From a virus (lineage: Duplodnaviria > Heunggongvirae > Uroviricota > Caudoviricetes), in the IMG/VR virus record IMGVR_UViG_2695420676_000008: 10,916 nucleotides of DNA, one strand, 5' to 3'. The notes below the pieces were generated by a model. The model did no database searches, was not told the DNA's origin, and saw only the letters and a list, made by a program, of their open reading frames with translations. Positions 222 through 8,950 of this stretch are shown here, piece by piece. The translations under genes and the position numbers were made by a program. Position 1 is the first letter of the stretch; every line of letters starts with the position of its first letter.

Positions 222-518
222 TCAGAATTCCATCTGGATTTGTTCAGAACGCTCGGTTGCCGCCGGGCGTTTTTTCTTTGTGATTTCATCAAGCGCATAC
301 TTAAAAGCCCTACTAATCGGACTGATGTCTGATGCCATTCCGAAAGCACACAAGACCGAAGCAATAAACCTCCAGTCTGTTCTGCTTATCTTCGATTCAT
401 GACAGCCAATCATCTTTGCCAGACCGCGCTGGGTAAGCGTTGACAGGTTGATGAGTAAATCTGTTTCTGCGCGATCAACGTCGCGCTGTGATAGTTTGCT
501 GTAACTTGTTTGTGTCAT
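222..518 (-). CDS. cII: cII-like transcriptional activator (98 aa)
   Basis: ORF track 222..518 minus. C-terminus KKKRPAATERSEQIQMEF matches lambda CII as recalled; the N-terminal part with an HTH-like segment (QRGLAKMIGCHESKISR) differs from lambda. Lies between cro and O on the same strand. Confidence 0.8.
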   Translation of the reverse strand: MTQTSYSKLSQRDVDRAETDLLINLSTLTQRGLAKMIGCHESKISRTDWRFIASVLCAFGMASDISPISRAFKYALDEITKKKRPAATERSEQIQMEF

Positions 519-868: not shown

Positions 869-937
869 GTACTTTCAGTACGCATTATGATTGAACTGAA
901 AGTTTTTGCAAGTGCTTTAGTATCGTACTCATGGTTC
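869..937. promoter_or_regulatory. oR region with divergent pR/pRM: three copies of a 13-bp dyad operator
   Basis: Sites GTACTTTCAGTAC (869..881), GAACTGAAAGTTT (893..905) and GTACTCATGGTTC (925..937) fit G[TA]ACT-N3-[AG]GT[AT]C. Candidate pR on the minus strand: -35 TTGCAA (906..911), 16-bp spacer, -10 CATAAT (884..889). cI starts at 931 with no Shine-Dalgarno, consistent with a leaderless pRM transcript as in lambda. Confidence 0.5.
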
Positions 938-1638
938 AGAATGAAAAAGTGCGCAAAGAATTCGCCCAGCGGCTAGCGCAAGCCTGTAAAGAAGCTGGTC
1001 TTGATGAACATGGTAGGGGAATGGCCATAGCCCGTGCCCTTTCTCTTTCGTCCAAAGGCGTTAGCAAATGGTTTAATGCTGAGTCTTTACCACGCCAGGA
1101 AAAAATGAATGCGCTTGCGAAATTTCTAAACGTTGATGTTGTTTGGCTTCAGCACGGCACTTCGTTAAATGGAGCGAATGATGAAGATACTTTTTCAATT
1201 GTTGGCAAATTAAAAAAAGGGTTAGTGCGCGTGGTTGGTGAGGCAATTCTTGGTGTTGATGGTGCCATCGAGATGACCGAAGAGCGCGATGGGTGGCTCA
1301 AGATTTATAGCGATGATCCAGATGCCTTTGGTCTTCGTGTAAAAGGAGACAGCATGTGGCCCAGAATTAAATCAGGAGAATATGTACTCATTGAGCCTAA
1401 CACCAAAGTATTCCCAGGTGATGAAGTGTTTGTCAGAACCATTGAAGGGCACAACATGATCAAGGTTCTTGGCTATGACAGAGACGGAGAATACCAATTT
1501 ACAAGCATCAATCAAGACCACAGGCCAATAACGTTGCCTTATCATCAAGTAGCAAAGGTGGAGTATGTGGCTGGTATTTTGAAGCAATCTCGCCACCTAG
1601 ATGACATCGAGGCAAGGGAATGGATTAAAAGTTCGTGA
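931..1638 (+). CDS. cI: cI-type prophage repressor, N-terminal HTH plus C-terminal S24 (LexA-like) autopeptidase domain, 235 aa
   Basis: ORF track 931..1638. Ser/Lys dyad motifs (GDSMWP; K in MIKVL) typical of LexA/cI self-cleaving repressors. Divergent from cro across the operator region. Sequence is not lambda cI, so this is a different immunity specificity. Confidence 0.9.
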   Translation: MVQNEKVRKEFAQRLAQACKEAGLDEHGRGMAIARALSLSSKGVSKWFNAESLPRQEKMNALAKFLNVDVVWLQHGTSLNGANDEDTFSIVGKLKKGLVRVVGEAILGVDGAIEMTEERDGWLKIYSDDPDAFGLRVKGDSMWPRIKSGEYVLIEPNTKVFPGDEVFVRTIEGHNMIKVLGYDRDGEYQFTSINQDHRPITLPYHQVAKVEYVAGILKQSRHLDDIEAREWIKSS

Positions 1639-1735
1639 CTTCATCGTCACATAGCTGGTAACCAATGGCCTGAAGAGACGTTTGGGTGACAAGAAGCATA
1701 GGTATTAACAATAACTTTCATGGTGATACGAATCA

Positions 1736-2278
1736 GTGGCTAAAAAAGGCGACTTTAAGCCTACCCAGAAAGAGGTTGACCAAGCTATTACTCGCTTGAA
1801 AAAAGTAACTTTTAGCGGAGTTTCGTGGACCGGAAGTGAGGGACGAACCCCAATCTGGTTTAAATTGGATCTCAAAGCTTTTGATGAAATTGGCAACCCA
1901 ATCACAGGCATAAGATTTATGCTTCACTGGCGTTCTCCTATCGTTGAAGGGGTGGATATAGTGAAGCTTTCATTTGTGATGTTTCTTCATGACAGGCGCA
2001 TTTACGCGCTTGACCCGTACCCTGCGCATAACAAGTCACACCGTAATAAATCTATAGTGCACCATCCAGATTTTGTTGAGGTGGCTCGAGGTCCTCACTA
2101 TCACATGTACTTCGAATCAGCTGGGGAAGAAATTGCACTCAAGCTTGAAACGAACATCAAGCCAGATGATTTTTTTGGCTACTGGAATTATTTTTGCGAG
2201 GCGCTTAATATCATATATGAAGGCAGCCCACCTTTACCGAATCAAGATAAATCAGGTCAGCTATCATGGGAAATGTAA
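1736..2278 (+). CDS. Hypothetical protein, gene A of an uncharacterised two-gene cassette downstream of cI (180 aa with GTG start; start uncertain)
   Basis: Long open frame 1736..2278 with no recognisable lambda homolog. Same strand as cI, with no terminator between. No clear Shine-Dalgarno for the GTG at 1736; first in-frame ATG is at 1919. 3' end overlaps the next ORF. Confidence 0.5.
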   Translation: MAKKGDFKPTQKEVDQAITRLKKVTFSGVSWTGSEGRTPIWFKLDLKAFDEIGNPITGIRFMLHWRSPIVEGVDIVKLSFVMFLHDRRIYALDPYPAHNKSHRNKSIVHHPDFVEVARGPHYHMYFESAGEEIALKLETNIKPDDFFGYWNYFCEALNIIYEGSPPLPNQDKSGQLSWEM

Positions 2279-3042
2279 CGTGTTCAACAGTCATATCTAA
2301 GCTCGGGTTTGAATGCCACCCAATGAGCGACACGTTGCTGCGCGTTATTAGTCCCTTCACATACTACGATGATTGTGAGCAGATAAGCGTATTCGTTCAA
2401 GAGATGAGTGGTCAGTATAGGGTTACAGACTACTGCGATACATTGATGAATATTGAATCACGCGGCATCCACCTGACTAAAAAGAAAATTGATCTGATCA
2501 GGTCATCACTCGCTTCGCAAGGAATTTCATTAAATGACTCTGGAGAGATATCTGCGTGGGCAGATGAGTCGTCCGTTGGACAGGTAACTGCAAATGTTAT
2601 TCGTGGTGGGATTCTTGCATCCGCCCAAACTGCTGATTGGTATGCTGAGGTCAAAGACGATAAGTTCGAAAAATGTGTAATCAGTTACTTAAAATCAGCA
2701 GGGCTTGGGAAGCGACTAGCCTTAAAGGAAAAAGTGAAAGGTATTAGTGGGCATAACATTACTGTTCCGTTAACGCTAAGGAATGAGTCTCGACTAATAC
2801 CACCAAAACGCGGGTTTACGGTAAGCCTTGCCAGCAGTAAAGGATGGAATACTGCCCACTCAACAGTTGGGAAGATTGTTGACTTAAGTCAGGTCGTTCC
2901 TGACATAAACAATAGATTTGTAATAGTTGACAGCGATGGGTTAACACCTGAGCTACAGCAACTATCACTACTATTTAATGATACCGCACGAGTGTTGCCA
3001 TTCCATACCAGAGACTCTTGGATTGACTCTCTGGTAGCCTAG
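2266..3042 (+). CDS. Hypothetical protein, gene B of the same cassette (258 aa; alternative start at 2323)
   Basis: ORF track 2266..3042. Overlaps gene A by 13 nt, suggesting translational coupling. No transmembrane-like hydrophobic stretch noticed. Followed directly by a strong terminator. Confidence 0.6.
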   Translation: MGNVTCSTVISKLGFECHPMSDTLLRVISPFTYYDDCEQISVFVQEMSGQYRVTDYCDTLMNIESRGIHLTKKKIDLIRSSLASQGISLNDSGEISAWADESSVGQVTANVIRGGILASAQTADWYAEVKDDKFEKCVISYLKSAGLGKRLALKEKVKGISGHNITVPLTLRNESRLIPPKRGFTVSLASSKGWNTAHSTVGKIVDLSQVVPDINNRFVIVDSDGLTPELQQLSLLFNDTARVLPFHTRDSWIDSLVA

Positions 3043-3073
3043 AAAAACCCGGCCTCTGCGCCGGGTTTTCTTT
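3043..3073. terminator. Rho-independent terminator, potentially bidirectional, ending the cI/cassette transcription unit
   Basis: AAAAA CCCGGC ctctgc GCCGGG TTTTCTTT: 6-bp GC stem (3048..3053 / 3060..3065) flanked by an A-run upstream and a T-run downstream. Confidence 0.7.
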
Positions 3074-3231
3074 ACCTCACGTTCGCCTCCCCTATTTAAC
3101 ATCCGCATATGTGCTAACCCACGAACTAACACGCCAGCAATACAGTCCTTTCTCCCCTACAGACCAATCTTCAATCTTTGCAAAAATAAATTTCATTACA
3201 TATCAAAAACTTATCTAATAAAATTAAAGAG

Positions 3232-3280
3232 TTGCAAAATCTCGTACTTACAGTTCTTGATAATATCGAACTATTAGTTC
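3232..3280 (+). promoter_or_regulatory. oL/pL region: two operator dyads and a candidate extended -10 promoter
   Basis: GTACTTACAGTTC (3244..3256) and GAACTATTAGTTC (3268..3280, perfect palindrome) share the oR consensus and the same 24-bp centre spacing as the first two oR sites. TGATAATAT (3258..3266) is an extended -10-like element between them; TTGCAA at 3232..3237. Exact -35/-10 assignment is uncertain. Confidence 0.5.
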
Positions 3281-3390
3281 ATTATTATCGCCGTCAGCAG
3301 CAAGCCACGCAGTGAAATGGGTGTGACTTGCTCAGGCCGCCAGAAGCAACGCGGAAAATCAATTCCAGCTTATTACGATTGAGGTGAGCC

Positions 3391-3507
3391 ATGCTCAAGA
3401 AAGTCAAACGCCGACTTTACAAAGAAGGTAGATATTCATGCCAGTTGCAAAAATGCGACACAACAAAATGGAGTGTCGATGATTGGTGTAACTGGATAGA
3501 TAGATAG
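3391..3507 (+). CDS. Small hypothetical protein (38 aa), first ORF downstream of pL
   Basis: ATG at 3391 preceded by GAGGTG Shine-Dalgarno; translation MLKKVKRRLYKEGRYSCQLQKCDTTKWSVDDWCNWIDR. Too short for an N-like antiterminator and no resemblance to one. Could be non-coding. Confidence 0.3.
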   Translation: MLKKVKRRLYKEGRYSCQLQKCDTTKWSVDDWCNWIDR

Positions 3508-3586
3508 ATACGGAACTTGGTGGGATAAATAACAGGTAACTTAAGCGTATTTACTTTCGCAGCAAACAACTTATTTGAGGTGATAT

Positions 3587-3673
3587 ATGGAAGAAGAATT
3601 TGAAGAGTTCGAAGAGCATCCTCAGGATGTGATGGAACAATACCAGGACTATCCGTATGACTACGACTATTGA
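3587..3673 (+). CDS. Small acidic protein (28 aa), positionally equivalent to lambda orf28
   Basis: ATG at 3587 with GAGG Shine-Dalgarno; translation MEEEFEEFEEHPQDVMEQYQDYPYDYDY. Overlaps the ral start by 17 nt, the same overlap as I recall for lambda orf28/ral. Confidence 0.55.
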   Translation: MEEEFEEFEEHPQDVMEQYQDYPYDYDY

Positions 3674-3857
3674 TAAAAATCAATGGTGTGGACAATTCAA
3701 GCGATGCAATGGATGCAAGCTGCAATCGGAATGCATGGTTAAGCCTGAAGAAATGTTTCCTGTAATGGAAGATGGGAAATATGTCGATAAATGGGCAATA
3801 CGAACGACGGCAATGATTGCCAGAGAACTTGGTAAACAGAACAACAAAGCTGCCTGA
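3657..3857 (+). CDS. ral: Ral, restriction alleviation protein (66 aa)
   Basis: ORF track 3657..3857; sequence MTTTIDKNQWCGQFKRCNGCKLQSECMVKPEE... matches lambda Ral as recalled. Correct synteny between pL and ea10. Confidence 0.85.
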   Translation: MTTTIDKNQWCGQFKRCNGCKLQSECMVKPEEMFPVMEDGKYVDKWAIRTTAMIARELGKQNNKAA

Positions 3858-3993
3858 TAGTGACCTTTATTTTTGGCATAAATAACAGAATAAACACTGC
3901 ACTGTGTATTCATTCCAACGAGTGAATACACGGAGCAATGTCGCTCGTAACTAAACAGGAGCCGACTTGTTCTGATTATTGGAAATCTTCTTT

Positions 3994-4019
3994 GCCCTCC
4001 AGTGTGAGGGCGATTTTTT
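3994..4019 (+). terminator. Rho-independent terminator between ral and ea10
   Basis: GCCCTC cagtgt GAGGGC followed by GATTTTTTA: 6-bp stem, 6-nt loop, T6 tract. Confidence 0.6.
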
Positions 4020-4039
4020 ATCTATGAGGATATGAATAG

Positions 4040-4408
4040 ATGTCAAACATCAAAAAATACATCATTGATTACGACTGGAAAGCATCAATGGAAATTGAAA
4101 TCGACCATGACGTAATGACAGAGGAAAAACTTCACCAGATTAATAATTTCTGGTCAGACTCTGAATACCGACTCAATAAACACGGCTCTGTATTAAATGC
4201 TGTATTAATCATGCTGGCGCAACATGCTCTGCTTATAGCAATTTCAAGCGACTTAAATGCATATGGTGTTGTGTGTGAGTTCGACTGGAATGATGGAAAT
4301 GGTCAGGAAGGATGGCCTCCAATGGATGGTAGCGAAGGAATAAGAATTACCGATATCGATACATCAGGAATATTTGATCCAGATGATATGACTATCAAAG
4401 CCGCCTGA
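4040..4408 (+). CDS. ea10: Ea10 early protein (122 aa)
   Basis: ORF track 4040..4408; length and sequence (MSNIKKYIIDYDWKAS...) agree with lambda Ea10 as recalled. Synteny between ral and cIII. Confidence 0.8.
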   Translation: MSNIKKYIIDYDWKASMEIEIDHDVMTEEKLHQINNFWSDSEYRLNKHGSVLNAVLIMLAQHALLIAISSDLNAYGVVCEFDWNDGNGQEGWPPMDGSEGIRITDIDTSGIFDPDDMTIKAA

Positions 4409-4480
4409 GCGCGGCGTTACCGCATACCAATTACGCTTCACTCGAGGCGTTTTTCGTTATGTATAAATAAGGAGCACACC

Positions 4481-4621
4481 ATGCAATATGCCATTGCAGG
4501 GTGGCCTGTTGCTGGCTGCCCTTCCGAATCTTTACTTGAACGAATCACCCGTAAATTACGTGACGGATGGAAACGCCTTATCGACATACTTAATCAGCCA
4601 GGAGTCCCCAAAAATGGATAA
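4481..4621 (+). CDS. cIII: CIII, FtsH-inhibiting regulator stabilising CII (46 aa here)
   Basis: AAGGAG Shine-Dalgarno at 4468..4473, ATG at 4481; translation [46 protein letters not shown] then TAA. Matches lambda CIII but appears to stop about 8 codons earlier than the lambda protein as I recall it. Confidence 0.85.
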   Translation: MQYAIAGWPVAGCPSESLLERITRKLRDGWKRLIDILNQPGVPKNG

Positions 4622-7329: not shown

Positions 7330-7551
7330 ATGGCAGACATCATTGATTCAGCATCAGAAATTGAAGAATTACAGCGCAACACAGCAATAAAAATGCGCCG
7401 CCTGAACCACCAGGCTATATCTGCCACTCATTGTTGTGAGTGTGGCGATCCCATAGATGAGCGAAGACGCCTGGCCGTTCAGGGTTGTCGGACTTGTGCA
7501 AGTTGCCAGCAAGATCTGGAGCTTATCCGCAAACAAAGGGGGATTAAGTGA
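7330..7551 (+). CDS. TraR/DksA-family C4 zinc-finger protein (73 aa)
   Basis: ORF track 7330..7551; CxxC-N17-CxxC motif (CCECGDPIDERRRLAVQGCRTCASCQ) typical of phage TraR/DksA-like proteins. Confidence 0.75.
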   Translation: MADIIDSASEIEELQRNTAIKMRRLNHQAISATHCCECGDPIDERRRLAVQGCRTCASCQQDLELIRKQRGIK

Positions 7552-8805: not shown

Positions 8806-8950
8806 GTCCATTTCTCAGATATGGTCGGGTAGCGCGTATACCGAAAAACAACCGAAAGGTTAAGGATACGGGCCGACTTTGCACGGTGTTCAAGTACCTG
8901 ACCGCCCTGCTGAACACAGGGCTATCTGAACAAATGCAAAGGACATAAAA

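Follow-up and report, generated by a model that had tools for sequence, protein, structure and literature searches.

What does a lambdoid prophage carry between its repressor gene and its leftward operator when the rexAB genes are not there? The question is raised by a stretch of 10,916 nucleotides (nt) from a virus of the Caudoviricetes (IMG/VR record IMGVR_UViG_2695420676_000008), here called the window, which is the immunity and early-left region of a lambdoid Escherichia coli prophage, read in the lambda leftward direction. The interval following the repressor is one of the few prophage regions transcribed in the lysogen, and rexAB and bstA are model abortive-infection systems. In the window it holds two overlapping genes, here called A and B. 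Our best explanation is that A and B form a module, expressed in the lysogen, that protects it from other phages by exclusion or abortive infection, and we put the probability of this at about 0.5. The reading is drawn from the slot and its expression logic, the recurrent placement of the pair after repressors in unrelated prophages and its retention in decaying ones, together with the obligate pairing of A and B, the defence-type neighbours of distant members of the family and two independent computational flags.

The cassette occupies the rexAB slot exactly. From the 3' half of cI to 50 nt beyond the gene (1185–1689) the window is 94% identical to phage H-19B, and at 3047–3094 it is 87.5% identical to the H-19B sequence just past the cargo of that phage, while 1663–1689 and 3041–3090 match phage SfI on both sides of rexA-rexB. 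Since these flanks are common to SfI and H-19B, which have different cargo, the cargo of the window spans approximately 1690–3040, and the slot is a cargo-exchange site. Between the common flanks SfI has rexAB, H-19B has a HigB-family toxin (PF09907, 4.5e-30), a helix-turn-helix (HTH) protein and two small open reading frames (ORFs), and the window has A and B. The initial annotation of this DNA had placed the pair at the rexAB position, which the shared flanks bear out, and had seen no resemblance to RexA or RexB, in agreement with a best BLASTP E-value of 0.84 for A and B against the RexA and RexB of SfI. The interval between cI and N is a hotspot of mosaic diversity, occupied in lambda by rexAB and in BTP1 by bstA, a defence gene expressed in the lysogen (PMC8585504). 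The older annotation of H-19B is blank between cI and N, though cargo is present in the slot (2674–4016, equivalent to 1690–3040 of the window). The features of the window needed in the following are listed here.

222–518, minus strand: cII
625–852/885, minus strand: cro
868–882, between cro and cI: oR operator palindrome CGTACTTTCAGTACG, with a related copy at 3243–3257
931–1638, plus strand: cI-type repressor of 235 residues (Pfam Peptidase_S24 3.5e-16, HTH_3 1.2e-5)
1639–1689, plus strand: left flank of the slot after cI, with homology to H-19B until 1689 and to SfI over 1663–1689
about 1690–3040, plus strand: exchangeable cargo cassette (A and B), bounded by sequence common to phages with other cargo
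1736–2278, plus strand: gene A, GTG start, 180 residues
2266–3042, plus strand: gene B, ATG start, 258 residues
2266–2278, plus strand: overlap of 13 nt, the end of A over the start of B
3043–3073, plus strand: intrinsic terminator closing the cI-A-B unit, a GC-rich stem and UUUUCUUU, −17 kcal/mol
3243–3285, plus strand: oL operator copy and pL-like promoter
3298–3382, plus strand: all that is left of the N antiterminator gene, its last 28 codons or so; context, outside the cassette

The coordinates, lengths and overlap that the initial annotation gave for two ORFs in the slot between cI and oL/pL were confirmed, and so was a cI gene directly upstream, both HTH_3 and Peptidase_S24 being found in the ORF at 931–1638. 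The C-terminal half of this cI is of the H-19B/Stx-phage type. A and B are real genes under strong purifying selection. With a relative of about 90% identity, the ratio of non-synonymous to synonymous substitution rates (dN/dS) was 0.059 for A and 0.016 for B, and with a relative of 74% identity it was 0.11 for B.

As had been claimed, both genes share the strand of cI, which is not followed by a terminator, and B is followed by a strong one. Downstream of cI there is only a 5-bp hairpin without a T-tract (GTGAC...GTCAC, 1636–1651, about −8 kcal/mol), which straddles the cI stop codon. The terminator 3' of B consists of the stem CCCGGC/GCCGGG followed by UUUUCUUU, and its sequence also follows rexB in SfI (90% identity) and the cargo of H-19B (87.5%). 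Further on there is a copy of the oR-like palindrome at 3243–3257 (3 matches as compared to 0.2 expected by chance) and a promoter-like site, TTGATA-17-CATTAT, at 3257–3285, which together place oL/pL just downstream of the terminator. We infer that the cassette is read through from cI, that is from pRM, and would be made in the lysogen. The overlap between A and B is an arrangement of the kind seen in translational coupling, and 13 or 4 nt of overlap are kept in 91 of 92 sequences, the exception being one disrupted copy.

The cassette had also been described as AT-rich in the manner of an acquired moron. Its GC content, 43.1% in A and 43.6% in B, is indeed lower than in bet (52.4%), exo (52.1%) and int (48.5%), but the moron signature did not hold. 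The cassette as a compositional island was rejected because its GC is the same as that of cI (44.8%), cro (41.8%) and the following 1.3 kb (39–41% over 3043–4408).

The pairing of A and B is obligate. In a set consisting of the window and 91 loci fetched through B, an A homologue lies directly upstream of B on the same strand in every sequence (92/92). A degenerate DNA pattern for the distant A clade gave 58 A-bearing sequences, including one prophage locus fetched earlier, and B adjoins A in all 48 that have room downstream. For the loci covered, this answers the question, raised with the initial annotation, of whether homologues of the two always occur together. The gene upstream of the pair is a repressor with HTH and S24 domains in 88 of the 92 B-anchored sequences, and these repressors fall into nine sequence clusters. 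The order repressor-A-B recurs in a prophage of Helicobacter pametensis, which belongs to another phylum, and its A was recognised by hhalign with a probability of 98%. In phages of Pseudomonas and Burkholderia the pair is inside the immunity region, with the repressor not directly upstream. Pseudomonas phage VB_PaD_phPA-G has an unannotated A-family ORF (3420/3546–4004) just 5' of a B-like gene, with an overlap of 4 nt, and a gene of 216 residues with a weak PDC-S48 match separates the CI-like repressor from A. The pair of Burkholderia phage phi644-2 is gp48-gp47.

The cassette is present in 61 of 5,426 complete E. coli genomes (about 1%), counted with at least 80% of the query covered, and the pair is annotated there as 'hypothetical protein' and 'DUF1828 domain-containing protein'. 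E. coli D1 has a 100% identical, intact cI-A-B block in a different, degraded prophage. A sister pair is found between cI and N in ev207, ev017, PhiR57_1, PhiR63_2 and an Stx1a phage. More distant pairs have other neighbours. Two of them (L116 and L133) adjoin a Type III restriction-modification (R-M) system and a third (L149) adjoins a TIR-domain protein and a PDC-M14A-like gene. In the largest distant clade, 38 metagenome loci from high-GC genomes, a Zn-metallopeptidase gene (PF04228) precedes the pair by about 184 nt (for example L134, 3999–5386).

The window itself and E. coli D1 are collinear as far as 3300. At this junction the N gene is shortened, about the last 28 codons of an N of SfI/Sf6 type being kept. 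The 98% identity to SfI begins inside N, and E. coli D1 is about 445 nt longer there, with the 5' portion of N and, presumably, nutL in the extra sequence. The prophage of the window is probably N-defective, although its cI-A-B is intact.

Two prediction resources flag the family. A PADLOC search, one of the checks proposed with the initial annotation, gave weak matches to the candidate system PDC-M24. B of the window matched PDC-M24B at 6.3e-7 over residues 5–104 only, and A matched PDC-M24A weakly at 1.5e-3 (16.9 bits). The distant A of L149 reached 5.8e-6 against PDC-M24A, and sister and distant B proteins matched PDC-M24B over their full length at 7e-10 to 1e-10, the B of ev207 being covered over 2–248 of 256 residues at 7e-10. 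The PDC systems are described in PMC11811056 as candidates, unpublished and of no demonstrated function, and the PDC-M systems are not mentioned in the preprint of Payne et al. 2024. In DefensePredictor, the E. coli sister pair of the ev207 type is placed in one transcription unit and listed as 'Predicted novel defense gene', with log-odds of 4.90 for WP_001062368.1 and 5.64 for WP_000968518.1, and its B is annotated as DUF1828 and DUF1829 (Table S5 of that study). The sister pair was not found in Tables S6–S8, which we took as the lists of tested and validated systems. The same study validated another DUF1829-containing protein, DS-6B of HipAD.

The family is already catalogued, in PHROGs, as DUF1828/DUF1829, among the PADLOC candidates and as a divergent DUF6978 relative, and defence has already been predicted for its E. 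coli sister clade. The word 'uncharacterised' in the initial annotation is right in so far as we found no characterisation, but not in so far as the family had been catalogued and flagged.

Protein A matches phrog_2017 strongly. Its profile, searched against 1.84 billion representative proteins, found no more than 42 relatives, of which nearly all stand alone and have at most 180 residues. A match to DUF6978 at E ≤ 0.01 is seen in 8 of 34 members of the A family, and judged from these profile matches A is a divergent relative of DUF6978 and not a curated member. Four residues are invariant across the family (K22, R88, H121 and H123) and seven are nearly invariant (W31, D93, H102, N104, F153, P168 and Q175). 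H110 is also conserved, beside H102, N104, H121 and H123. The predicted model of A is rich in β-strands.

A single R-x5-H match in A, RNKSIVH, had been put forward as a hint of a HEPN RNase. The motif is present, at residues 103–109, but R103 is replaced by S or T and H109 by N, D, I or S in homologues. With the β-rich model and with no HEPN match in Pfam or PADLOC, a HEPN RNase was rejected.

The C-terminal tail of A, residues 172–180, is disordered in the model, below 50 in predicted local distance difference test (pLDDT), with a tail value of 41. Its end is a conserved pattern, Q-hydrophobic-x-hydrophobic-x-hydrophobic. The amino acids of the tail are kept while the codons change synonymously, which implies that the constraint acts on the A protein. 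That the tail is conserved merely as the ribosome-binding site of B was rejected, since the residues are kept despite synonymous codons and the Gly codon is not universal.

Protein B matches phrog_1960 and contains a DUF1828 domain at residues 30–112 (40.9 bits as compared to the Pfam cut-off of 22). Its predicted model (pLDDT 82) has two domains. In the model the N-terminal domain is structurally similar to secretion chaperones, of the type III secretion chaperone kind, and their relatives, and the C-terminal domain has the α-β-β-β-α-β core of the PD-(D/E)xK fold. The nearest structures to the latter, Can2 (10.5), NgoMIV (9.3), PspGI (9.2) and NucC (7.4), are defence nucleases (Can2 and NucC) and restriction enzymes. 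DUF1829, of the PDDEXK clan, was detected in relatives of B and agrees with a nuclease-like C-terminal fold. The polar residues that do not vary among 18 non-redundant B proteins are D36 and D55 of the N-terminal domain and, in the C-terminal domain, S161, H163 and D206. The same proteins lack the canonical D...(D/E)xK in the C-terminal domain, with no conserved acidic-x-Lys in the third strand, and K181 is limited to the enterobacterial clade. In the PD-(D/E)xK fold the first acidic residue is expected about the second core strand, and H163 lies just ahead of the second strand of the predicted core.

Neither A nor B has a transmembrane segment, in agreement with the initial annotation, the highest mean Kyte-Doolittle hydropathy over 19 residues being 1.22 in A and 0.79 in B. 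No signal peptide was predicted in either. Sequence searches of solved structures with the A and B profiles gave no match at E ≤ 10, and NCBIfam had no match to A or B.

It is conceivable how such a pair could work. Coupled translation would make A and B together, and the two would form a complex in which the disordered C-terminal tail of A docks as an added β-strand on the chaperone-like N-terminal domain of B. A product of an infecting phage would then disturb the complex, and the disturbance would release a hydrolytic activity, either from the PD-(D/E)xK-fold domain of B, with its invariant Ser-Gly-His and Asp, or from the His/Asp site of A. The released activity would halt phage replication or kill the infected cell. 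We put forward these steps (tail docking, disturbance by a phage product, released hydrolysis) very tentatively, by analogy with the binding of effectors by chaperones and with toxin-antitoxin-chaperone (TAC) systems. It is equally doubtful whether the mechanism is one new to phage defence, in which an A with a novel fold and a His/Asp site for metal binding or catalysis would be held by B through a β-strand 'addiction' tail, B would use Ser-Gly-His and Asp instead of D...(D/E)xK, and the trigger would be a phage protein competing for the chaperone groove. If true, this would be a new sensor-effector logic, and A-B would be a general tenant of repressor-adjacent prophage slots from Enterobacterales to Helicobacter.

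Other explanations have to be weighed against a protective role. A compact operon of two overlapping genes that are obligately paired and stay intact in degraded prophages could also be a toxin-antitoxin-like addiction module, in which post-segregational killing stabilises the prophage or its immunity region and there is no role against other phages, and the equivalent slot of H-19B does carry a genuine HigB toxin with an HTH partner. In Pfam, NCBIfam and PADLOC, however, A and B match no family of toxins or antitoxins, neither has a DNA-binding antitoxin domain, and we regard the addiction module as unlikely. It also overlaps with protection against phages instead of excluding it, as many prophage toxin-antitoxin modules act in defence too. 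The pair might instead serve the life cycle of its own phage, by tuning the lysis-lysogeny switch or induction, as reported for RexA, or by processing DNA in excision or recombination. The tight and repeated linkage to the repressor gene over different immunity types would suit such a role, and so would the nuclease-fold domain of B. The same flanks, on the other hand, enclose unrelated cargo such as rexAB and HigB, which implies that the content of the slot is dispensable for the core life cycle, the cassette is present in only 61 of the 5,426 E. coli genomes, and distant pairs are found away from repressors, beside R-M or TIR genes or the Zn-peptidase gene. It therefore appears rather improbable that the pair serves its own phage.

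It would also be possible that the pair is a moron of benefit to the host in a manner unrelated to phages, in stress tolerance, virulence or metabolism, and is merely expressed together with the repressor. Cargo expressed in the lysogen may have roles other than defence, bstA having first been tied to virulence phenotypes (PMC8585504), and the His/Asp cluster of A could suit a small-molecule enzyme. The lack of signal peptide, membrane segment and any metabolic or virulence family match speaks against such a moron, and a function directed at phages accounts better for the presence of the pair near repressors in prophages of very different hosts, which makes the host-benefit explanation very unlikely.

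Several observations weigh against the protective role itself. The match of A to Pfam DUF6978 is below threshold (21.1 bits as compared to the cut-off of 29.6, E 4e-4) and covers only the C-terminal 60 residues, and Foldseek found no fold match for A among PDB structures or the viral structures of BFVD. The nuclease-fold domain of B may, judged from its missing canonical residues, be catalytically inactive. The window proteins differ from PDC-M24 in that they match it weakly, as a divergent branch, and the pair scored by DefensePredictor belongs to a sister clade, to which A of the window is 39.5% and B 51% identical. The overall validation rate of DefensePredictor is 45%, so that about half of its predictions fail. 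The B-anchored loci are very redundant, 140 B sequences falling into 18 clusters at 80% identity and the A sequences into 24, and the locus counts stand for lineages and not for independent events. The distant clade of 38 loci is without obvious defence or prophage context. Finally, we found no published characterisation of the A-B family or experimental evidence for it, in a search that did not cover Brenes and Laub 2025 on prophage defence in E. coli. The proposal of a candidate defence module in the initial annotation is nevertheless retained, on account of the slot, the exchangeable cargo and the computational flags, but without its arguments from an AT-rich island and a HEPN motif.

The gene order of the whole window is cII, cro, cI, A, B, terminator, oL/pL, ral, cIII thermoregulator RNA, bet, exo, xis and int. 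Some further observations were made outside the cassette. Two tiny ORFs (38 and 28 residues) separate the N remnant from ral, as they do in SfI and Sf6. An ORF of 66 residues (3657–3857, plus strand) is within a stretch with about 98% identity to SfI that includes its annotated ral (restriction alleviation), and by eye it resembles lambda Ral. The cIII thermoregulator element of lambda is found at 4468–4526 on the plus strand (RF01804, 88.5 bits), as expected for a lambda-like cIII start region. An ORF of 73 residues (7330–7551, plus strand) has two CxxC pairs and is by eye similar to a zinc finger of the TraR/DksA type. The Rfam family sRNA-Xcc1 (RF02221) matches at 8823–8911 on the plus strand (69.3 bits, with a gathering score of 53), between two early-left ORFs and upstream of xis and int.

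A specialist will not be surprised by a candidate defence cassette in the slot following the repressor, and the remaining interest lies in the unknown fold of A, the non-canonical site of B and the breadth of the linkage to repressors. The pair is a small and cheap target in E. coli. A positive outcome could reveal a new sensing or effector mechanism, and a negative one would calibrate the rule that a repressor-adjacent slot means defence.

Compared with the candidates of the prediction resources, the arrangement of the window is familiar. PDC-M24 likewise has adjacent A and B genes on one strand, with a B type of about 255 residues and a small A type, and the DefensePredictor pair is the same two-gene unit in the same position after the repressor in phages of the ev207 type. 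The likeness of B to Can2/Card1 and NucC is confined to the nuclease-like fold. The N-terminal domain of B is similar to secretion chaperones, and is not a CARF or SAVED domain, the canonical catalytic residues are absent, and A-B has no cyclase or other signal-generating partner. In TAC systems a chaperone recognises a chaperone-addiction element of its partner, and the systems mediate antiphage defence (bioRxiv 10.1101/2024.02.24.581848). The chaperone-like domain of B and the conserved, disordered tail of A would make a similar pairing, by analogy only, but the chaperone fold is type III secretion chaperone-like as compared to SecB-like, and no toxin or antitoxin is recognisable in A-B.

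The closest parallels in position are RexAB and BstA. RexAB shares with A-B the slot between cI and oL/pL, its flanks and its terminator, and consists of two genes on the repressor strand, which are co-transcribed with cI in lysogens (PMC8585504). A-B differs from it in sequence and in folds, and also in having no membrane protein, RexB being reported to be an ion channel (PMC8585504). BstA of the Salmonella prophage BTP1 is encoded by a defence gene directly downstream of the repressor, with high expression in the lysogen, and the repressor-adjacent position of bstA is conserved over diverse Gram-negative prophages (PMC8585504). Unlike A-B, BstA is a single protein, and its sequence is unrelated, but the position directly downstream of a prophage repressor is the same. 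BstA has a DNA-based self-immunity element, aba, of which no counterpart was noticed in the window, although no search aimed at it was made. A-B is a third, unrelated tenant of the slot known for rexAB and bstA.

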